Shown in pieces: positions 19,197-63,131 of a stretch of 64,000 nt of DNA (its first letter is position 1; each line of letters begins with the position of its first letter). Under the pieces are notes generated by a model. It was not told the DNA's origin and did not search any database. It saw nothing but the letters and a program-made list of their open reading frames with translations. Source of the stretch: an uncultured Clostridia bacterium (GTDB lineage Bacteria > Bacillota > Clostridia > Christensenellales > UBA1242); NCBI GenBank assembly GCA_934757855.1, contig CAKVLR010000002.1:361397-425396 (forward strand), given 5' to 3'. Both the position numbers and the translations under genes were made by a program.

Positions 19197-20219
19197 ATGA
19201 CCGAAAATGATTTGCGCGCGATTGAGAGTGCGCTAGGATATAGTTTTGATAATATTGATTTGTTGCAACAGGCTTTTGTGCGCCGTAGTTATTCGCAGGA
19301 AAATGGCGGGCAAAATAACGAAGTTTTGGAGTTTATCGGGGACAAGGCGTTAGACCTTGCGGTAATCAAGATTTTGATGCAACGCTTTGGCGAGATTACC
19401 GAGCAAAAAGAGTGTCAAGAATTGAAATTGCGCAACCCTAAATATTTTGTAACCAAACACGATGAGGGCGAGTTTACAAACATAAAGGCAGATTTGGTGA
19501 ATAGAGGCGCGCTTGCTAAGTGTATAGATAGACTGGAATTTAATCAATATTTGATTATGGGCAAGGGCGATATTGAGCAAAATGTGCAAAATAGCACGGC
19601 GGTAAAAGAGGACTTGTTTGAAGCGATTATCGGCGCGGTTGCGGTCGATTGCGATTATGATATGCAAATTATTTGCGAAGTAACAAGCAGAATGATTGAT
19701 TTCGATGGTTATTTTAGTGGAGCAGATTTTGTAGATGAAAGACCTATATTAGACCTCAAAGACTGGGCAGACAAAATCGGTTGCGGTGCGCCCGAATACA
19801 ATTTTATTGAAAAGAATGGCGAGTGCTTGTGTAGCCTAGAAATTAAATCAATAGGCTTAACCGCGTTGGGTGCTGGTAAAAATCGCGTAGATGCGCAGGC
19901 GGATTGCGCACTAAAAGCGTGTGAAATTTTGGACGACAACAAGATTTTAGCCGATGAATACGAAATAGAGGTCGGCGTGCCTGAACGCGATGAGGCAATT
20001 CAGCAGTTAAATGACTTAAAGCAAAAAAATATGATTTTTAACCTCGAATACAAGTTTGAGGAAACGGAAAACGAGGGCGATGAGCGCTGGTATTGCGTAG
20101 CAACCGCTGAAAATATCGCATACAATTACGGCGGAGATGGCAAGGCTAGCACCAAAAAAGAAGCCCAAAAAACTGCAGCCTTTGACCTTTTGCTAGGCTT
20201 AATGAAATACGATTTTTAA
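19197..20219 (+). CDS. rnc: ribonuclease III family protein with two C-terminal dsRBD-like domains
   Basis: RNase III signature NEVLEFIGDKALDL and EDLFEAIIGAV. Two dsRBD-like ends: GAGKNRVDAQADCALKACEIL and GDGKASTKKEAQKTAAFDLLLGL. ATG 19197 follows GGAGG. Confidence 0.8.
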   Translation: MTENDLRAIESALGYSFDNIDLLQQAFVRRSYSQENGGQNNEVLEFIGDKALDLAVIKILMQRFGEITEQKECQELKLRNPKYFVTKHDEGEFTNIKADLVNRGALAKCIDRLEFNQYLIMGKGDIEQNVQNSTAVKEDLFEAIIGAVAVDCDYDMQIICEVTSRMIDFDGYFSGADFVDERPILDLKDWADKIGCGAPEYNFIEKNGECLCSLEIKSIGLTALGAGKNRVDAQADCALKACEILDDNKILADEYEIEVGVPERDEAIQQLNDLKQKNMIFNLEYKFEETENEGDERWYCVATAENIAYNYGGDGKASTKKEAQKTAAFDLLLGLMKYDF

Positions 20220-20223
20220 TAAG

Positions 20224-20279
20224 AAGTGAAGCAGAAAATAAAAGACCCGTAGAGGTCTTTTATTGGTGCGAATGAAAGG
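20224..20279. repeat. direct repeat copy 1: terminator hairpin plus 16 nt of the tRNA-Leu(UAG) 3' end (displaced copy)
   Basis: 55/56-nt repeat of 20436-20490 (one 1-nt indel and one substitution); ends in TGGTGCGAATGAAAGG. Confidence 0.85.
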
Positions 20280-20352
20280 TCGTGTAGCAGGCAGGCTATG
20301 CCGTGCCTAGCGTATTAGCGAGCCGAAATAATTATAATTTAGAAAGTCGAGC

Positions 20353-20443
20353 AAGAACGGCGAGCGTCCGTTCACGGAAGTGAAGGTTACACTGCTTTTA
20401 GAGCAGTGGGAGAGTGGAACACTCTCACAAGTCCTAAGTGAAG
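20353..20443. other. tRNA-Leu-associated structured element, copy E1
   Basis: Homologous to 50691-50778. The 55-nt core is about 95% identical. Three hairpins are present, with one compensatory base-pair change between the copies. Confidence 0.7.
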
Positions 20444-20474
20444 CAAAAATAAAAGACCCGTAGAGGTCTTTGAT

Positions 20475-20557
20475 TGGTGCGAATGAAAGGACTTGAACCT
20501 TCACGGTCTCCCACTAGAACCTAAATCTAGCGCGTCTGCCAATTCCGCCACATTCGC
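20475..20557 (-). tRNA. tRNA-Leu (anticodon UAG)
   Basis: Acceptor GCGAATG/CATTCGC, anticodon loop UUUAGGU, long variable arm, T-loop GGTTCAAGTCC, encoded CCA. Confidence 0.9.
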
Positions 20558-20621
20558 ATAAATGGTATAAAAATTGTAGTTTAATATTGCTAATAACTCG
20601 CATTGTTTGCCACTTGCAATC

Positions 20622-20637
20622 GCGGGCGATGGGAATC
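20622..20637. repeat. displaced duplicate of the tRNA-Gly 3' end (16 nt)
   Basis: GCGGGCGATGGGAATC is identical to 20739-20754 inside tRNA-Gly, 117 bp away. Confidence 0.8.
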
Positions 20638-20734
20638 TCCTTGGTAGTTGTGTGCAAGCCCGCAACTGTGGGCGATTCCCCTTGTGCTATACGGATACCT
20701 AGTTACTATTCCAAATACCAACTAACTACCCGAT

Positions 20735-20808
20735 TGGAGCGGGCGATGGGAATCGAACCCACATAACCAGCTTGGAAGGCTGGCGCTCTACCACTGAGCT
20801 ACGCCCGC
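20735..20808 (-). tRNA. tRNA-Gly (anticodon UCC)
   Basis: GCGGGCGTAGCTCAGTGGTAGAGC..., anticodon loop CUUCCAA, T-arm GGGTTCGATTCCC, encoded CCA. Confidence 0.92.
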
Positions 20809-50575: not shown

Positions 50576-50584
50576 AAAAAATAT

Positions 50585-50667
50585 GCGATTGTGGCGGAAT
50601 TGGCAGACGCGCTAGGTTCAGGTCTTAGTGGGAAACCGTGAAGGTTCAAATCCTTTCAATCGCACCA
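50585..50667 (+). tRNA. tRNA-Leu (anticodon CAG)
   Basis: Acceptor GCGATTG/CAATCGC, anticodon loop UUCAGGU, long variable arm, encoded CCA. Confidence 0.9.
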
Positions 50668-50690
50668 AAAGACCCCTTGCGGGTCTTTTT
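50668..50690 (+). terminator. rho-independent terminator
   Basis: GACCC-CTTGC-GGGTC followed by TTTTT. Confidence 0.8.
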
Positions 50691-50778
50691 GATTGAAAGG
50701 ATTTGAGAGAGCGTGCGCTCTCGCACTGCTCTAAAAGCAGTGAACCTTCACTTTCGTGAACGGACGCTCGCTGTTCTT
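50691..50778. other. tRNA-Leu-associated structured element, copy E2
   Basis: 16/16 nt (50691-50706) and 9/9 nt (50743-50751) are the reverse complement of the adjacent tRNA T-arm and 3' acceptor region. A 36-nt two-hairpin insert splits them. Homologous to 20353-20443. Confidence 0.7.
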
Positions 50779-50784
50779 AAAAAA

Positions 50785-50970
50785 CGATATTGACCTAGCG
50801 GTCAATGATATTACTCACTATCGTTCGTAGTGATATTATTTACTAGCGTAAATAATGATATGATATTTGCCTTCACTGCAAACAAAGTTTGCAATATCAC
50901 TCGCTAAGCGAATATCATTGCGGAGCAATATCACTCACGCAGTGAATATCACTGAGCCGTAGGCTCAATT
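50785..50970. repeat. array of eight different short hairpins separated by GATAT (x5), then ATATC (x4), linker words
   Basis: GATAT at 50786, 50807, 50832, 50857 and 50862. ATATC at 50894, 50912, 50928 and 50946. Hairpins at 50791-50804, 50815-50833, 50838-50853, 50877-50893, 50901-50911, 50917-50929, 50931-50945 and 50953-50967. Confidence 0.8.
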
Positions 50971-50974
50971 TCAT

Positions 50975-51019
50975 TGTAAACAAAAGGAAAAGCCTCATAG
51001 GCTTTCCTTTTTTGTTTAC
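50975..51019. terminator. long hairpin with flanking A/T tracts (bidirectional terminator type)
   Basis: GTAAACAAAAGGAAAAGCC-TCAT-AGGCTTTCCTTTTTTGTTTAC. Confidence 0.7.
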
Positions 51020-51090
51020 TGAGGGACTCACGCCGTTACGCTAACCAGCCTGTTATTCTATTAGCATCGTACGGACAGCGCTTCACTATC

Positions 51091-51160
51091 GTGCCGAGGT
51101 GCTAAAAACTTGCCACTGGCAATTTTTTCAAACGCACCTGTTCGAGTCCGACGACTATCG
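51091..51160 (+). other. inverted tRNA-Leu(CAA)-derived fragment (tRNA-like, not a functional tRNA)
   Basis: GTGCCGAG (the tRNA 5' end) and TGTTCGAGTCCG (a T-arm-like sequence) flank an unrelated hairpin AGGTGC..TTGCCAGTGGCAA..GCACCT. There is no matching acceptor 3' strand. Confidence 0.35.
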
Positions 51161-51161
51161 T

Positions 51162-51196
51162 AAAACAAAAACAAGACCGTTCTATTAGTCTTGTTT
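51162..51196 (-). terminator. terminator of tRNA-Leu(CAA)
   Basis: On the minus strand: ACAAGAC-loop-GTCTTGT followed by TTTTGTTTT. Confidence 0.7.
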
Positions 51197-51201
51197 AGTA
51201 C

Positions 51202-51288
51202 TGGTGCCGAGAGAGGGACTCGAACCCTCATGGGATTGCTCCCGGCAGATTTTGAGTCTACTGCGTCTGCCAATTTCGCCATCTCGGC
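51202..51288 (-). tRNA. tRNA-Leu (anticodon CAA)
   Basis: Acceptor GCCGAGA/TCTCGGC, anticodon loop CUCAAAA, long variable arm, T-arm GAGGGTTCGAGTCCCTC, encoded CCA. Confidence 0.9.
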
Positions 51289-57491: not shown

Positions 57492-60400
57492 ATGGCAAAA
57501 GAAAAAGAGAAATTAAAGCATACTAATTATAGCATTGGACTGGATATTGGTACAAATTCAGTTGGTTGGGCTGTTGTAGATGAAAATATGAATTTGGTTA
57601 AGCGTTGTAAAAAGCACTTATGGGGTAGTCGCTTGTTTGATGAGCGCGAAACAGCAAAAAATAGGCGTATATTTCGTACTACGCGCAGAAGGTTATTGCG
57701 TAGGCGTATTCGTATCGCAATACTAAATAAATTGCTACAAGATTTTGTTGGCGACCAAAACTTTTTTGTTAGAATGGAAGAAAGTTTTTTGCAGAAAAAC
57801 GACCGCACTTTGCAAAATAAATACACACTTTTTGATGAAGAAAGTTCTTGCGACATAAAATCAAGTGATGGCAAAATTTTATATACCATAACAAAAGATG
57901 ATGATTTTTATAAATTATTTCCTACAATTTATCACTTGCGCAAAAGCATTATTGAGCATCAAGATTGGATATTTGCTCCAAAACTGGTTTATTTAGCGAT
58001 TCACCATATCTTAAAGAGTCGTGGTAACTTTATCAATGAAAGTTTGGACTCAAAAAATAGCGATGATAAAAATACCGATGAGGACCAAGAACAAGAGATA
58101 GATATAAATAAATTATTTGTTAAAATTTTGCAAGATGCTTGTGATATATATGATGTGGAATTAGAAAATATTGATGAATTTAGCGAATATAAATGGATTA
58201 GAAATCTAAGTGCACAATCGCAGGTATTTTTTGAAGTTTTGCAAAATAATGATTTAAGCAAAGAAGCAAAAATTGCGCAAATAAAACAAAAATTTAATTG
58301 TGGAAAAGATGATACAGAAATTGAATCGCTCCTAAAATTGTTACTTGGCGATTTGGCGGATATCAACAAGATATTTAAGAGTGATACCAAAGAGAAATTT
58401 AAAGTGAAATTTTCAGAGGACAATATTGATGAAAAAATATTAGCAAGTGGTGAATATTCACAATTTTTAGAAAATGCTAAAAACTTGTATTCCTTGGTAG
58501 AGTATCAGCGAATTATGCAAGGCAAAAATTATCTTTCTGATGTAATGATAGAGCGATACAATCGTTACAAACAACAATTAAAAGACTTAAAAACTGTATT
58601 TTTAGCGATTTATCCAAAACAAAATGGCAAAATGCACCCAGAATATCGCAAGTTTTTCCGTGATTTAAAAACTGTTGATGGTTATGCTTGATATACATAT
58701 TCCGTTAATTCTTGTGATGAGAAAAAATTTAAAAGTACTATTATAGGGGCAATAAAAAATAATGAGCAAAAAATAATTAGTGCGGGCATTTGTGCGGAAG
58801 ACAACCAAAGTATTGCGGAAAAAGCGAAAAAAATCTTAATTTGTCTTGGAGAGTATTCGGCAAAAGATGGAAAAGAACAACTTTATGTTGGTATAGACTT
58901 TACAGACAAAGATTTTAGGACAGAGAGTGATAGGCAAAAGCAACAAGAGTTAGGCTTTTTACAGCGCCCTCGCGTGGCTGGTAATGGTATTTTCCCAAAA
59001 CAAGCACACCAAAAAGAATTAGATATAATTCTTAAAAATCAATCAGTATATTGGGGCAATTTTTTAAACAAAAAAACTGATTTCTCAAACAACACAATTC
59101 AAGAAGATATCAAAAAATTATTCAATTTTAAAATTGACTACTATGTTGGACCATTGGGTATCAGCAAAAATGGAACAAACAATTTTGGCTGGGTGGTACG
59201 CAAAGAAGGTTTTAGTGAAATAACTCCTTTTAATTATTACGATGCTGTTGATTTTGAGAAAACTCGTAAAAATTTTATTGAGAGAATGTCTGGCAACTGC
59301 TCATATATTTTGAATAAAAAAGCGTTACCTAAAAACTCAATGTATTACTGCTATTTTAATGTACTAAATGAATTATGCAATATTAGTATTTTGATAAAAG
59401 ACAAATTAATGAAATTGCACGAGATTTCACTAAATGGAAAAAATTGCTTTGATATTATTATTGATAAATTGCTCGAGAAAAATACCTTTAAACAAAAAGA
59501 TTTATTGCATATGCTGACAGAAGAATATGATGATGTGTCTATAAGAGGTTTTTCAAATGGCGAAAAGTTAAATTCTAATTTAAAATCAATTCGCGATATG
59601 GCTAGAATATTTGAGGATAGAAAATTAAATCATTGTGAAATTATGGAATTTCTAGGCAGTGAAAAAGCAAGTATGTATGAAGATGTAATTCGTGATGTTA
59701 CTATTTTCGGCGAAAGCAAAAAAGCACTAAAAGAATCTTTGAGTAAATATCATTTGAAGGAAGATGAAAAAGAGAGAGAGAAACAAATAAACGCCATTTG
59801 TGAGTTAAATTATTCTGGTTGGGGTAATTTGAGCAAAAAATTAATTTTTGGCATTGAATCTGAGAGTAGCGGGAACAAAATTCTAAAATTAATGGAAAGC
59901 GAACATAGAAACTTTATGTCTATTTATATGGACAAGCGATACGGCTTTGATGAGCAAGTAAAAAAACTAAACGAAGTAGATAAACCTAATGTCCTTGAGC
60001 AAATTAACTCGCTTGTTTGCTCTCCTAGCGTAAAAAGAGGGGTTAACCAAGCGTATAAAATTGTGGAGGAACTAGTACAAGTTATGGGACACGCTCCGCA
60101 AAATGTATTTTTAGAGTTCGCGCGTGGTGGAGATTCTAAGAAAAAAGGTAGTGTTATTCCAAACAGACAAAAACAAATTGACAAAAAATATAAAGATGCA
60201 AAAGCATTAAAAGATGGCTTATATGAAAAATATATAAATGCTGACGGTAAATTAAATGAAAATATAAGCCTTTTATCACAAAACGATAAAGAAAATGATA
60301 AATTAAAGAATAAATTTGATAATGAAAAAGTAGTACTATATTTCTTGCAAATGGGTAGATGTATGTACAGTAATGAGATATTAGACTTAAATCATATTAG

Positions 60401-62255
60401 CGAATATGAAGTGGACCACATCGTGCCTCAGTCGATTATAGATGATAATAGTTTTGATAATAAAGTTTTGGTTAAGGTGAAAAGAAATCAACAAAAATCC
60501 AATGGAATTTTAGAGATAAAAGACTCAGAAGTAACGAAATTATGGAAAGAGTTGCGTAAAATGGGGTTGTTGACAGTTGAAAAATATGATAGATTGCTCA
60601 AATTGCAGAATGGCACTCTGCTTGATAATACTGCTGGTTTTGTTGCTAGACAATTAGTGGAAACTAGGCAAATTATAAAAAATACCGCAGAAATTTTAAA
60701 AGACTACTTCAAAGAATATAATGCTAAATCTGCTCAAATTAATGCAGAAAATCAAGCATTTGAAACTTCGGTTTATCCTGTAAAGGCTGAGATGAATAGT
60801 ATTTTTAGACAAAAATTTGGTTATCCAAAGGGCGAAGGTGGCAGGGCTATCAATGACTTTCACCACGCAAAAGATGCCTATATCACAACGGTTATGGGGA
60901 CTTATATGCTAAATCATTGGCATTTAGATGACCCTAAAATGTGGTTTGTAGCAAGGAGTAAAAAGAATGAAGATGACCCTAAATTTGAATGTTCATTTTA
61001 TCAAAACTATATCGAAGATATAAAAGCGGAACAAGACACGCTAAACCCGCAAAATACAAATAAAAGCGGTGTGATTGTTGGTTCGATGAAGAAATATCAA
61101 GACAAAAATTGGTGTGGTAGCAAATGCGAAACTCATACAAACATTACTATTAAAGATGTGCTTAATAATTTTGACCGTAACTACTACTCCGCAGATTGTT
61201 ATTATTCAAGAAAAATTGATTCAAAACCAACAGGTGCTTTTTACGACCAAACCATTTACAAAAGCGACAAGAATAAAGAAAAGTTTGGGAAAACGCGCAA
61301 TCATGAGGGTATTGCGAGTATTTCTTTGGGAAAAATCAAAAAACCAATTATGCCATATGGTGAGAAGGTAGTGCAAAAAATCAATAGAATAGACTTAGAT
61401 GTGAGTAAATATGGTGGCTATTCTTCAACTAAATATGCATATTTTATGCTAATTGAGTACAAAGATGAAAAGGGTAAAGTAATTCAGGAAATAATTGGTT
61501 GTCCATACTACATATTAAAACAATCATCGAATGATATTGAATTAGTGAATAACATAAAAAATAATTTAATAATAAAAAACCAACAAGAATATACTAATTT
61601 TAAAATTTTAAATAAACGATTACCTAAAAAAAGTGTTTTGCAAACTAATTTGTATTCAAAAGTTTCGTTAGATCGGTCTGAACAATTCAAGATTATAAAT
61701 CGCTTCAGTATCCCACGAAATAATAAAGAATTATATCATTTTATTTATTTAATTTTTAAGTATACTAAGAGCAAAGATGAATATGAGGGTAATAGAAAGA
61801 TTACAATAAATTATATTGATTATAATGCATGGCTAAAAGAAAAACAGTATCCGTTAGGTGTGAATATAGATTTAGAGAATTATATAAATGAGAATTTTGC
61901 TAATTTTTATAAGATTTTTCTTGAATATGTTAAGTCAAAACATAGACATAAGACTTCTATAATTAATATTGAAAAAGCATATGCTAAGATTTGTAATGAA
62001 ACTGATTTAGATGCGATATATCACGATACCAATACAAAAACCATACTTGAAAAGAAATTATTATTTATTGTAGGGTTATTAAATATTTCAAAGGGAGAGG
62101 CAGATTTTACATTGTTTGATTTAGCAAAAAATTGTGGACTTATTAGGATTACACAGGAAGTGGACTGGTATAACACTTACATTATTCACAATTCCATAAC
62201 TGGTATTTATTGCACAAAAGAAAAAATAATAAAAAATACACAAGAAAATAGGTAA
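57492..62255 (+). CDS. cas9: Cas9 (type II-A), 1587-codon frame interrupted by one in-frame TGA at 58689-58691 (possible pseudogene or read-through)
   Basis: RuvC-I YSIGLDIGTNSVGWAVV; Arg-rich bridge helix RRIFRTTRRRLLRRRIRI; RuvC-II VFLEFARG; HNH YEVDHIVPQS..N; RuvC-III NDFHHAKDAY. ORF-track pieces 57492-58691 and 58974-62255 are in the same frame, and 58692-58973 is open. Confidence 0.93.
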
Positions 62256-62258
62256 AAT

Positions 62259-63131
62259 ATGAGTTTTAGGACTGTTTTAATTACTCAAAAATCAAAGTTA
62301 TCATACAAAGATAACTTTTTGGTTATTCAAGGTAAAACAACAAATATGGTGCATTTAAGCGAAATTCATACTATTATTGTTGAATCTACAATGGTGCAAA
62401 TATCGGCATATCTTTTAGCTCAATTATCTGCAAACAAAATCAAATTGATTGTTTGCGATGAACGCCACAACCCTACAGCAGAAATGGTACCATATTATGC
62501 AAATTACAATACATCAAAAAGATTTTTAAATCAGGTCAAATGGAATGAGGAAAGTAAAAAAGCCCTTTGGACAAAAATAGTATCAAATAAAATACTAAAT
62601 CAGGCAAGAATTTTAAAAAATTTTGGAATAGAAAGACACAAAATGTTGCTAGGATATTTGAGTGAGGTAGAATTAAACGATGAAACAAATAGAGAGGGAC
62701 ATTCTGCAAAAGTCTATTTTAATAGTTTGTTTGGTATGGATTTTTCGCGGGACAAGGTTTGTGATATAAATATGGCATTAGATTACGGATATACTATTAT
62801 TTTATCTGCGTTTAATCGTACTATATCTAGTTTGGGTTATGCAAACCAATTAGGAATTAAACATAAAAATGAGTACAATTTCTTTAACCTAGGTTGCGAC
62901 CTTATGGAGCCGTTTCGAGTGGTTATAGATGAATTTGTGTATGAAAATCGTGAGCGAATGTTTGATTCTTCATACAAACAAGATTTGGTGCAGTTGTTAA
63001 ATAAGAATATTAATTATTGTGGCAAAAATATGATTTTAACCAATGCAATAAATATATTTGTGCTAAACGCGTTGCGCGCAATTGATGAAAATAGAATAGC
63101 GGAGTATGAAGCATATGAGTACGGAGTATAG
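62259..63131 (+). CDS. cas1: Cas1 (type II)
   Basis: Strong similarity by eye to S. pyogenes Cas1: SKLSYK.N.L, NREGHSAKVYFNSLFG.DFSRD, LDYGYT, EPFR. Confidence 0.95.
   Translation: MSFRTVLITQKSKLSYKDNFLVIQGKTTNMVHLSEIHTIIVESTMVQISAYLLAQLSANKIKLIVCDERHNPTAEMVPYYANYNTSKRFLNQVKWNEESKKALWTKIVSNKILNQARILKNFGIERHKMLLGYLSEVELNDETNREGHSAKVYFNSLFGMDFSRDKVCDINMALDYGYTIILSAFNRTISSLGYANQLGIKHKNEYNFFNLGCDLMEPFRVVIDEFVYENRERMFDSSYKQDLVQLLNKNINYCGKNMILTNAINIFVLNALRAIDENRIAEYEAYEYGV

Follow-up and report, generated by a model that had tools for sequence, protein, structure and literature searches.

An inverted, hairpin-bearing copy of the T-arm conserved behind tRNA-Leu genes of uncultured gut bacteria: a candidate trailer RNA

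What might keep a split, inverted copy of a tRNA's own T-arm just behind the gene for that tRNA? The window analysed here, 64,000 nt of DNA from an uncultured Clostridia bacterium, raises this question twice. It carries two homologous copies of an element, c1 (50691–50778, plus strand) and c2 (20353–20437, minus strand), each behind a tRNA-Leu gene, on the tRNA strand and 1–16 nt past the tRNA terminator; each combines three hairpins with the T-arm of its own tRNA-Leu in reverse complement, split into two pieces. We tentatively favour, with a probability of roughly 40%, the reading that the element acts as a 3'-trailer RNA of the tRNA strand, structured and under selection, able to clamp the T-arm into a four-way junction, and that it arose by a direct-inverted-direct rearrangement or a mini-insertion.

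In c1, the parts mirrored by the element are the T-arm and 3' acceptor strand of tRNA-Leu(CAG) (50585–50667, plus strand), a gene called by ARAGORN and scoring 51.3 bits against the Rfam tRNA model. The symmetry centre between the tRNA 3' half and the first arm is T1 (50668–50690, plus strand), a terminator-like sequence that folds as a hairpin, ends in a five-T run and is homologous to the T1 of c2. The first arm, GATTGAAAGGATTTGA (50691–50706), is, as originally predicted, a 16/16 reverse complement of the tRNA (nt 62–77; 50646–50661), a match found 0 times in shuffles of the downstream sequence. Behind it, a 36-nt insert holds hairpin 1 (GAGAGCG-TG-CGCTCTC, 50707–50722) and hairpin 2 (CACTGC-TCTAAAA-GCAGTG, 50724–50742), and hairpin 3 (CTTCAC-TTTC-GTGAA, 50746–50760) follows; all three had been described correctly from the sequence. 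The second arm, AACCTTCAC (within 50743–50760, overlapping hairpin 3), is the reverse complement of tRNA nt 54–62 and had been given as a 9/9 match. The complementarity is real and extends further, TGAACCTTCAC (50741–50751) being an 11/11 reverse complement of tRNA nt 54–64, so that the two arms flank the 36-nt insert and share 3 nt (TGA). A conserved tail, CGGACGCTCGCTGTTCTT (50761–50778), can form an optional hairpin, GAACGG/CTGTTC.

The second copy lies behind tRNA-Leu(UAG) (20475–20557, minus strand), the second gene of a tRNA-Gly/tRNA-Leu operon, and behind a T1 (20452–20471, minus strand) listed by the terminator scan. Scoring 112 bits against our covariance model, c2 (20353–20437) comprises AGGACTTG (20428–20435), hairpin 1 (20410–20426), hairpin 2 (20390–20408), AACCTTCAC (20380–20388), hairpin 3 (20371–20385) and the tail (20353–20370). 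The original prediction had extended this minus-strand copy over 20353–20443 and had placed the element immediately past the terminator. The copy is indeed homologous and ends at 20437, the last 6 nt being non-homologous spacer, and the immediate position holds for c1, whereas c2 starts 16 nt after its terminator. BLAST aligns 50582–50778 with 20560–20353 at 83.7% identity over 209 nt (E=1e-26), continuously from tRNA through terminator into element, and the 55-nt cores differ, as reported before, by two substitutions and one indel. The 19-mer of hairpin 2 is found two times in the window, where 0.03 occurrences are expected, and a covariance-model scan of all 64 kb matched the two tRNA-Leu-linked copies only.

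The element is also present at the orthologous tRNA-Leu(UAG) of three related genomes (L001, L012 and L019), and the hosts seen belong to a single narrow clade of Clostridia-like gut bacteria (uncultured, 35% GC), in which they make up three lineages at species level. An exact 19-mer scan returned one true relative (L001) and two chance matches among GTDB representatives and chance matches only among JGI metagenomes. We reached L019 via SufC homologues, a route that led to no more distant species; homologues of the neighbouring gene, which encodes a 340-aa RNase III-like protein, were not syntenic, and DUF421 homologues brought up no tRNA-Leu loci.

Between the window and L019, the most distant relative, this left part of the locus (the left module) is 85% identical, and a right module with its repeat, described below, is 88% identical, compared with 60–63% at SufC/SufD third codon positions, 58% in the Gly-Leu spacer and 53% in the flank past the repeat. 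Identities of 85–88% where neutral sites give 53–63% require purifying selection, and the unpaired, non-repeated stretches CGGACGCTCGCCG and CGGCTCGCTAATACGC are conserved as well. Hairpins 1 and 2 are paired in 100% of cells (n=5 copies), the sequence of hairpin 3 is invariant, no stem is broken by a single substitution in any of the five copies, and the remaining substitutions fall in loops and linkers (P=0.014 for two or fewer of 12 changes in stems). Two double compensatory changes, both T-A to C-G, affect hairpin 1 and hairpin 2 in different lineages; this covariation comes from five sequences and two or three events, and DNA template switching can restore hairpin arms without selection on an RNA (PMC8604942). 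The hairpin-1 change, which separates c1 from c2, had led the original prediction to argue for selection on the hairpins, an argument strengthened by the second, independent change, which a related species has in hairpin 2, and by the 85–88% identity against a neutral level of about 55–63%. As far as these alignments tell, the element is kept intact by selection in related species.

What is being preserved includes the match to the tRNA. The arms (AGGAYUUG... and AACCUUCAC) exactly complement both T-arm halves of the tRNA that directly precedes them; the split falls between U55 and C56, where the two hairpins are inserted. Copy c1 matches its own CAG tRNA over 16+11 nt, a difference in the acceptor strand included. 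Of the 83 positions of the UAG tRNA, the window and L019 differ at one, a G/A in the T-loop, for which the element has the matching C/T. The complementarity to the T-arm, which the original prediction had put forward as an antisense relation, tracks the tRNA in these comparisons.

The element forms the left module of a larger composite (155–380 bp) at the UAG loci. This composite closes with another conserved hairpin and a stretch that repeats the tRNA 3' end in direct orientation (17–56 nt), and this repeat looks like an att site. For c2, the hairpin is the right module, CGGCTCGCTAATACGCTAGGCAcGGC-ata-GCCTGCCTGCTACACGA (20280–20325, minus strand; 88% identical to L019), and the repeat of the tRNA-Leu(UAG) 3' end follows, with a second T1 and TGCTTCACTT (20224–20279, minus strand; 54/56 against 20436–20490). 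Its tRNA-end part, CCTTTCATTCGCACCAAT (20262–20279), measures 18 nt, or 56 nt including the terminator and trailer; the repeat is 17 nt long in L001 and at least 23 nt in L019, and we found none at c1. The right module and direct repeat of c2 were absent from the original prediction, as were the arrays behind c1 and the analogous fragments at the other two tRNAs, both described below. The scenario that would have counted against that prediction, plain attL/attR scars lacking conserved hairpins, is half borne out: att-like repeats do exist here, but the hairpins are conserved.

Like an RNA of the 3'ETS type, the element occupies a tRNA operon trailer, shares the strand of the tRNA and has no promoter of its own that we could find; the only strong promoter is upstream of tRNA-Gly, and the window, L001 and L019 all have it at the corresponding site. 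In L019, the element begins 11 nt past the tRNA with no terminator in between, and a stem, GAACGGAC/GTCCGTTC, with a T-run comes right after hairpin 3. A good intrinsic terminator separates tRNA and element in the window, L001 and L012, so transcription of the element there would depend on read-through. The RNA would then be the tail of the tRNA operon transcript, made directly in L019 and by read-through of the short terminator in the window and L001. Folded together, tRNA and trailer are predicted to form one shared four-way junction in c1, c2 and L019 (−84, −80 and −77 kcal/mol; z-scores −5.9, −5.4 and −5.1).

The complementarity of its arms would let the trailer lock the T-arm and 3' strand of the precursor it belongs to in a four-way junction that resembles a cloverleaf. 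We infer that this clamp may mark or hold read-through precursors, possibly as a determinant of processing or decay. Alternatively, a released RNA of ~100 nt might pair with tRNA-Leu precursors. The order of tRNA, inverted T-arm and displaced 3' end could have arisen through a template switch during replication, at the terminator hairpin, or through a small piece inserted at the tRNA.

Several observations count against a trailer RNA. The terminator past hairpin 3 in L019 is not conserved in the other copies, and the L019 right module and tRNA 3' repeat, which lie beyond that terminator, are equally conserved and hence unexplained by a trailer RNA ending there. A tRNA that is folded co-transcriptionally and modified may never be invaded by its trailer, and misfolding its own tRNA offers no obvious benefit. 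We also considered a hairpin-4 terminator common to all copies and rejected it, the hairpin being intact only in L019, c1 and c2 and followed by a T-run in L019 only.

The best-surviving alternative, which we regard as unlikely, is that the composite is a miniature non-autonomous integrative element, or what remains of a trimmed island, in the tRNA-Leu 3' end. The tRNA-proximal part would replace the tRNA 3' end and supply T1, the direct repeat would be the displaced native 3' end (attR), and the hairpins and inverted T-arm would be recombination sites, recognised in double-stranded form as palindromes or, when folded as a single strand, through their likeness to the tRNA target. The closest parallel would be the folded attP of the CTX phage, or the integron attC. 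Displaced tRNA fragments are a standard mark of integration (PMC4383910, PMC9897764), and in c2, L001 and L019 the insert is enclosed by the tRNA 3' end and its direct repeat. In L001, T1 follows the tRNA-side copy of the repeat and a different terminator follows the distal copy, as expected of attL/attR; genes past the repeat differ in all three species compared; sequence assemblies break at the repeats; and the predicted fold closes the element by pairing AAGG at its left end with CCTT of the repeat. The paralogues c1 and c2 are closer than the orthologues (3 differences versus 10, counted from hairpin 2 onward). Together with the long and short forms of the element and a tandem copy at tRNA-Gly, the direct repeats and the break in synteny past them point to dynamics at the level of DNA.

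Set beside tRNA-integrated islands and prophages (Islander, PMC4383910; PMC9897764, which cites Williams 2002, PMC100330, on tRNA-fragment/att junctions), the locus is alike in its intact tRNA with a distal direct repeat of the 3' end, in the terminator difference of L001 and in the gene change past the repeat. It differs in its size of just 155–380 bp and its inverted, split T-arm copy, and in its conservation at orthologous sites: all four of the four orthologous UAG loci are occupied, and the lack of an empty tRNA-Leu(UAG) site among them is weak evidence at n=4. Every copy lacks an integrase, transposase or relaxase, both inside it and nearby, the insert being non-coding; Pfam scans of neighbours in the window and L018 (a Gut-1-bearing contig discussed below) showed no recombinase, and the genes near the copies are housekeeping genes, with no transposase or reverse transcriptase among them. 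Phage and plasmid BLAST searches yielded nothing for the element, nor did IMG/VR scans with hairpin 2, hairpin 3 plus tail, the Gut-1 centre, the right module and the right end plus repeat. Copy c1 has no direct repeat at all, and the inverted arm complements the T-loop, which is absent from the distal repeat, so that a simple hairpin-att model fits poorly. T1 stands after both repeat copies in the window and after neither in L019; trailers thus change in concert within a genome, which suggests gene conversion and not a fixed attP identity block. Were the composite nevertheless such an element, its circle junction would read ...CTACACGA-CCTTTCATTCGCACCA-...-AGGAYTTG.

Two other tRNAs of the window have trailers that recall the arrangement. 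Behind tRNA-Gly(UCC) (20622–20680, minus strand), an inverted T-arm fragment, GGGAATCG-CCCACA (20667–20680), is followed by a hairpin and a 16-nt direct repeat of the tRNA 3' part (20622–20637); this feature has a tandem copy in L012 and lacks 43 nt in L001, the indel being flanked by ATCGCCC. Behind tRNA-Leu(CAA), GGACTCGAAC (51140–51149, minus strand) is the reverse complement of that tRNA's own T-loop (p about 0.03) and precedes a hairpin-bearing insert. Similarity of this trailer to the left or right module stays within shuffle scores, making it analogous only; the right side of c1 fares no better in that comparison, and a TTTCAAACGCACC match at 51126–51138 is not significant.

Another idea, in our view quite improbable, is that the element has no function and is what errors of replication left behind at a hairpin-rich locus under heavy transcription. 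An inverted triplication of the tRNA 3' part would have come about through template switches between short palindromes, quasi-palindrome correction would keep arms and hairpins complementary, and gene conversion among paralogues and with the tRNA would keep them similar. Inverted triplications do arise at short inverted repeats (PMC4689423), and template switching homogenises the arms of inverted repeats (PMC8604942). Like these products, the UAG and Gly loci have the direct-inverted-direct order of the tRNA 3' part, complementary arms and palindromes at the junctions: the inverted arm of c1 is symmetric about the terminator hairpin, and hairpin 3 itself joins an inverted to a direct form of GTGAA(G)G. 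The instability of the tRNA-Gly version (the 43-nt indel at ATCGCCC and the tandem in L012) and the concerted evolution of c1 and c2 fit as well. Template-switch products would, however, be expected to be unconserved, whereas CGGACGCTCGCCG and CGGCTCGCTAATACGC are unpaired, beyond the protection of arm correction, and conserved well over the neutral level; no stem is disrupted by a single substitution in five copies, and arms of 8–10 nt are probably short for RecA-type conversion.

The long form of the element carries a cargo. Directly behind c1 lie two convergent arrays of 'TGATAT + variable hairpin' units (50782–50976), separated by a palindrome, TGCAAACAAAGTTTGCA (50877–50893). The minus-strand array (50907–50976) is an Rfam Gut-1 array at 54.7 bits, and the plus-strand array (50782–50866), at 33.4 bits, is sub-threshold and Gut-1-like, assignment to Gut-1 being taken to need three hairpins, UGAAAU-like linkers between them and at least 50 bits. 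Gut-1 (RF01706) is an RNA motif of Weinberg et al. 2010 (PMC2864571), whose model gives no match to the element itself. In L001 the element is followed by the same Gut-1-type block (L001 2150–2537 versus window 50582–50935, 82.5%); c2, L012 and L019 have the short form, without arrays. Our phage and plasmid BLAST searches also turned up L018, a faecal contig from an unrelated gut bacterium in which Gut-1 lies directly past a tRNA-Arg terminator. Element and Gut-1 are thus physically linked in the long form and both known only from uncultured human-gut bacteria, but each occurs alone, Gut-1 in L018 and the element in c2, L012 and L019.

We think it rather more doubtful still that the element is merely the 5' domain of a longer ncRNA or DNA unit in which the Gut-1 arrays do the work, the left module anchors or regulates them and c2 has lost them. 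The immediate succession of left module and convergent arrays in c1 and L001 fits this, as does the position of Gut-1 behind tRNA-Arg. The array-less short form is nonetheless conserved in three genomes, including the most distant one, the L018 locus lacks both the left module and the tRNA fragments, and the arrays, being convergent, cannot both be carried in the Rfam sense by one transcript. A further construal, to which we give a similarly slim chance, makes the composite a miniature tRNA-homing element whose target is located through pairing between nucleic acids and not through protein–DNA recognition. It would consist of the displaced tRNA 3' end and the antisense T-arm in its two pieces, together with the hairpins and, where present, the Gut-1 arrays. 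As a transcript or as a folded single strand, it would hold the tRNA-Leu T-arm, in gene or precursor, in a four-way junction resembling a cloverleaf, and this junction would serve as the substrate for insertion, processing or tRNA control. Were this so, the orphan Gut-1 motif would have its first biological context.

That the opposite strand is the functional one, as a tRNA-Leu-derived tRNA-like RNA or pseudogene whose T-loop is interrupted by 36 nt carrying two hairpins, hairpin 2 being its anticodon-like arm, seems very improbable: that strand does read GTGAAGGTT-[two hairpins]-CAAATCCTTTCAATC, a tRNA-sense T-arm, and T1 is roughly bidirectional, but ARAGORN and the Rfam tRNA model found no tRNA-like gene in the element on either strand, just the four true tRNAs of the window, the tRNA 5' half is absent, the fold is weak (z = −2.3) with hairpin 1 missing from the minimum-energy structure, the G.T pairs of the c1 tail hairpin and the c2 T1, workable on the tRNA strand only, become A.C mismatches, no promoter-like site points that way, and the 7-nt hairpin-2 loop, earlier read as anticodon-like, is not conserved (UCUAAAA in the window, UUGAAUA in L019), the U33-NNN-purine pattern being kept on neither strand.

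Searches against known families placed the element in none. An Rfam 15 search of the window and both loci, at the gathering threshold and at E<=10, gave only chance-level matches over 50691–50778 and 20353–20437, which agrees with the original prediction that no known RNA family would fit; T-box models gave no score over the element. Among mobile elements, a MITE was rejected on the grounds of only two, tRNA-Leu-linked copies in 64 kb and of terminal inverted repeats that go no further than TGTG...CACA. The bridge RNA of IS110 has two guide loops, for target and donor; a guide of this type was rejected since no recombinase gene is nearby and both arms complement one continuous strand. An IS91 target (CTTG/GTTC), an IS200/IS605-type two-hairpin mini-element, a casposon-like target duplication and retroelement priming were set aside for want of a supporting gene or end structure.

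Returning to the trailer RNA, its closest functional parallel would be 3'ETS-leuZ, the 3' external transcribed spacer of the E. coli glyW-cysT-leuZ tRNA operon, reportedly described by Lalaouna et al. in 2015 as an sRNA sponge. Both are non-coding, lie in a tRNA-Leu trailer at the end of a tRNA operon and lack a promoter of their own; 3'ETS-leuZ is functional, and the element putatively so. The two have no relation in sequence or structure and no Rfam match connects them, and the element complements the T-arm of its own tRNA, lies past a terminator in the majority of copies and is associated with direct repeats. With T-box leaders and other tRNA-binding RNAs it shares a sequence matched to one particular tRNA. 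T-boxes, however, read the anticodon and NCCA end, stack on the elbow and lie upstream of genes, whereas the element complements a T-arm strand and lies downstream of the tRNA itself.

The reach of these findings is limited to three species-level lineages of one uncultured clade, and the role of the element is putative. As for Gut-1, a 'gut-only' orphan motif since 2010, two unrelated gut Firmicutes have it right behind tRNA genes, in convergent pairs of arrays, which makes it testable. Small att-like inserts at tRNA genes, the locus also shows, can be preserved by selection instead of decaying. If the favoured reading is right, the element would be a new kind of conserved tRNA-operon element, a trailer that matches its tRNA's T-arm by base pairing and co-varies with it.

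The hairpin trailer behind the tRNA-Leu genes occurs twice in the window. Copy 1 (50691-50778, +) follows tRNA-Leu(CAG) (50585-50667, +) and is preceded by T1, a terminator-like hairpin plus a run of five T (50668-50690, +); copy 2 (20353-20437, −) lies behind tRNA-Leu(UAG) (20475-20557, −). ARAGORN and Rfam called both genes, as well as tRNA-Gly(UCC) (20735-20808, −) and tRNA-Leu(CAA) (51202-51288, −). On the plus strand, copy 1 consists of arm 1, GATTGAAAGGATTTGA (50691-50706); hairpin 1, GAGAGCG-TG-CGCTCTC (50707-50722); hairpin 2, CACTGC-TCTAAAA-GCAGTG (50724-50742); arm 2, AACCTTCAC (50743-50751), overlapping hairpin 3, CTTCAC-TTTC-GTGAA (50746-50760); and a tail, CGGACGCTCGCTGTTCTT, up to 50778. 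The first arm is, as originally predicted, a 16/16 reverse complement of the tRNA (nt 62-77). The second was correctly called a reverse complement, but its extent of 9/9 was too short, as TGAACCTTCAC matches nt 54-64 at 11/11; the two arms, which flank a 36-nt insert, therefore have TGA in common. No shuffle of the downstream sequence, our chance control, gave a 16-nt reverse-complement match. That the element is real and present in two copies is borne out by BLAST, which aligns 50582-50778 with 20560-20353 (83.7% identity, 209 nt, E=1e-26) and joins the loci end to end, so that tRNA, terminator and element form one homologous block. The window contains two occurrences of the hairpin-2 19-mer (0.03 expected), and the 55-nt cores differ, as first described, by 2 substitutions and 1 indel, with a clean T-A to C-G swap in hairpin 1.

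An exact 19-mer scan across one genome per GTDB species returned a single true relative, the gut MAG L001, whose sequence around the tRNA-Gly/tRNA-Leu(UAG) operon matches the window at 91% identity over 2.4 kb; exact scanning of metagenomes gave chance matches only. Exact-protein look-ups added two contigs that cover the UAG locus: L011, with no difference from the window, and L012, at 97% identity. A SufC homologue (92% protein identity) led to L019, a more distant species (sufCD ~83% nucleotide identity). In all of these the element sits behind the orthologous tRNA-Leu(UAG), with covariance-model scores of 107-112 bits. The model, built from five copies, matched nothing in more distant loci and only copies 1 and 2 in the window. 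The host is uncultured, with 35% GC and a yqfD sporulation gene, and the relatives are labelled Clostridia MAGs. Elsewhere in the window lie a type II CRISPR-Cas locus (57492-63131, +), in which cas9 is split into two ORFs ~280 nt apart (57492-58691, with a weak bridge-helix match, and 58974-62255, with REC, HNH, RuvC and PI domains) and followed by cas1 (62259-63131), and, convergent with copy 2, a gene for a 340-aa protein with an RNase III domain and a dsRBD (19197-20219, +). The latter family is common in uncultured gut Firmicutes and sits beside AbiH and DpnII-type defence genes in another species (L015). In a more distant species (L028, 2960-3270, −), a tRNA-Tyr precedes a DUF421 gene, and an apparent CRISPR array (repeat GTTTTAGTTCCCTATTAAATTTTGGTATGGTATAAT), located further downstream of the tRNA-Tyr, has no relation to the element.

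The original failure to match the element to an RNA family was borne out: Rfam 15, searched at gathering thresholds and at E<=10, gave only chance-level matches over the element at both loci. ARAGORN found no tRNA-like gene there on either strand, and neither BLAST against phage and plasmid collections nor five IMG/VR pattern scans returned a match to the element. In function, the closest precedent is the E. coli trailer RNA 3'ETS-leuZ. In structure, the closest precedent is the kind of displaced tRNA fragment that integration leaves behind (PMC4383910, PMC9897764), and the nearest named neighbour is the orphan motif Gut-1 (Rfam RF01706), described only as a non-coding RNA candidate from gut metagenomes (PMC2864571). 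Membership tests failed for each: displaced tRNA fragment, 3'ETS-leuZ-type trailer and Gut-1 family. We regard the element as a conserved tRNA-trailer element of narrow distribution that matches no known family.

Comparison of the window with L019 shows how unevenly the locus has changed. Identity is 99% in the tRNA genes, 88% in the right module plus repeat and 85% in the left module, which is the element itself, versus 65% in the linker between modules, 60% and 63% at third codon positions of sufC and sufD, and 58% in the tRNA-Gly/tRNA-Leu spacer. The left module differs at 12 positions, including a compensatory pair in the hairpin-2 stem (CACTGC/GCAGTG to CACCGC/GCGGTG), which strengthens the earlier argument from hairpin 1 for selection on structure; the remainder fall in loops (5), linkers (2), an arm position pairing with the tRNA T-loop (1) and arm-lengthening bases (two). 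The probability of no more than 2 of 12 changes within the 42 stem positions is 0.014. Hairpins 1 and 2 are paired in 100% of cells in all five copies, and each has one double change, in separate lineages. The element is therefore not a decaying scar.

Its predicted antisense relation to the tRNA-Leu 3' half also held: the complementarity is present and tracks a T-loop change in L019. The UAG tRNAs differ at 1/83 positions (CAAGTCC in the window versus CAAATCC in L019), and the matching arm site reads AGGACTTG and AGGATTTG, respectively; the arms of copy 1 fit their own CAG tRNA, acceptor-strand difference included. The arms seem to follow the tRNA, in only one or two independent events. For tRNA plus trailer RNA, the same four-way junction is predicted in copy 1 (-84 kcal/mol, z-score -5.9), copy 2 (-80 kcal/mol, -5.4) and L019 (-77 kcal/mol, -5.1), comprising helix A (GUGAAGGUU/AACCUUCAC), helix B, in which the tRNA T-loop and 3' strand would pair with AGGAYUUG..., and hairpins 1 and 2. 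In these predicted minimum-energy folds, the junction displaces the cloverleaf T-arm and acceptor pairing. The opposite strand is predicted to fold weakly (z = -2.3), with hairpin 1 missing from its minimum-energy structure. The proposed anticodon-like loop of hairpin 2 did not survive, as it reads UCUAAAA in the window versus UUGAAUA in L019 and we judge it not conserved.

In the window, L001 and L019, tRNA-Gly has one strong promoter (TTGACT-17-TATAAT, with TG just 5' of the second hexamer) at an equivalent upstream position, and none precedes the element. Copy 1 has a similar promoter 5' of its tRNA and none after it. In L019, the element begins 11 nt 3' of the tRNA, with GAACGGAC...GTCCGTTC and a T-run behind it, an arrangement that would place the element inside the operon transcript; in the window clade, T1 stands between tRNA and element. 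The few G.T pairs, found in the copy 1 tail hairpin and the copy 2 T1, form only on the tRNA strand. We tentatively read the element, with a probability of about 0.4, as a structured RNA made as a tRNA trailer, a reading favoured by its location on the tRNA strand, the operon layout in L019, purifying selection, loop-only or compensatory substitutions and strand-specific wobble pairs. The predicted T-arm pairing may mark read-through precursors for processing or decay; alternatively, a released RNA could pair with tRNA-Leu precursors.

The element is also one module of a larger unit. At UAG loci the tRNA is followed in turn by T1 (absent in L019), the left module, a linker, the right module (CGGCTCGCTAATACGCTAGGCA-hairpin-TGCCTGCTACAC(G)A) and a directly repeated copy of the tRNA 3' end (CCTTTCATTCGCACCA...); copy 1 has no such direct repeat. 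The repeat spans 18 nt in the window, or 56 nt (54/56 identical) because T1 and TGCTTCACTT are also repeated, 17 nt in L001, with a different terminator behind it, and 23+ nt in L019. In both the window and L019 it ends exactly where the inverted arm starts, despite differing trailer sequences. In the window each of the two repeat copies carries T1, and in L019 neither does; within one genome, therefore, they change jointly. Past the distal repeat, genes differ in all three species and identity drops to 53%.

In the long form (copy 1 and L001; 82.5% identity between window 50582-50935 and L001 2150-2537), the left module leads into ~200 nt of 'TGATAT + variable hairpin' units, which form two convergent arrays on the two sides of a central palindrome (50877-50893 in copy 1). 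Rfam matches Gut-1 here at 50907-50976 (−, 54.7 bits), at 50782-50866 (+, 33.4 bits) and in L001 (44.6 bits). Gut-1 arrays lie directly 3' of tRNA genes in two unrelated gut Firmicutes (window 50782-50976 and L001 2380-2560; L018 5000-5175); in L018, a faecal contig (MT835815.1), the array comes after a tRNA-Arg(ACG) terminator and ahead of a gene for a 121-aa PF05635 '23S rRNA intervening sequence protein'. The linker of Gut-1-type units is constant and the hairpin sequence varies from unit to unit. Independent short-read assemblies break at the central palindrome (start of L010, window 50875), inside tRNA-Leu(UAG) (end of L011, window 20541) and in the tRNA-Gly spacer repeat (end of L012), which is consistent with assemblers failing on repeats or palindromes.

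Similar fragments stand behind other tRNAs. In the tRNA-Gly/tRNA-Leu spacer (window 20558-20734, −; L012 5082-5303; L001 2021-2152; L019 7565-7695), GGGAATCG-CCCACA, the reverse complement of the tRNA-Gly T-arm minus T54-T55, is followed by a hairpin and by 16 nt that directly repeat the 3' part of tRNA-Gly. This version is unstable: L012 has two tandem copies, L001 lacks the 43 nt between two ATCGCCC repeats, and only GGAATCGAAC is left in L019. Immediately 3' of tRNA-Gly, ATCGGGTRGTT folds back onto the 3' acceptor strand of that tRNA (window 20724-20750, −; L019 7683-7708) as a terminator-like hairpin with G.U pairs and a U-rich run, present in the four genomes examined. Behind tRNA-Leu(CAA), GGACTCGAAC (51140-51149, −), the reverse complement of its own T-loop (p ~0.03), precedes a hairpin-bearing insert. 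This trailer (51021-51201, −) also holds short direct 3'-strand copies, CTCGGCAC (51091-51098) and GAGTCCCTC (51021-51029); TTTCAAACGCACC (51126-51138, +) resembles the tRNA-Leu(CAG) 3' end, not significantly. The tRNA-Leu(CAA) feature shows no homology to the left or right module, and the trailer is not predicted to invade its tRNA. Nothing comparable lies behind tRNA-Arg in two other taxa. With fragments behind several tRNAs, the direct-inverted-direct tRNA 3' arrangement is therefore a habit of this lineage.

Several features point to DNA-level events: direct repeats, two different terminators in L001, the existence of a long and a short form, a tandem copy, the break in synteny and concerted evolution. 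Under the last we count that, from hairpin 2 onward, copies 1 and 2 differ at 3 positions, copy 2 and L019 at 10. One DNA-level reading is a miniature integrative element; we found no recombinase, empty site or mobile-element match for it, and consider it unlikely. Less likely again is a purely neutral inverted triplication by template switching, which can restore hairpin arms (PMC8604942, PMC4689423) but cannot protect the conserved unpaired stretches (e.g. CGGACGCTCGCCG, CGGCTCGCTAATACGC). The RNA and DNA-level readings are not mutually exclusive, and we favour an origin by rearrangement or mini-insertion, with the product later brought under selection.
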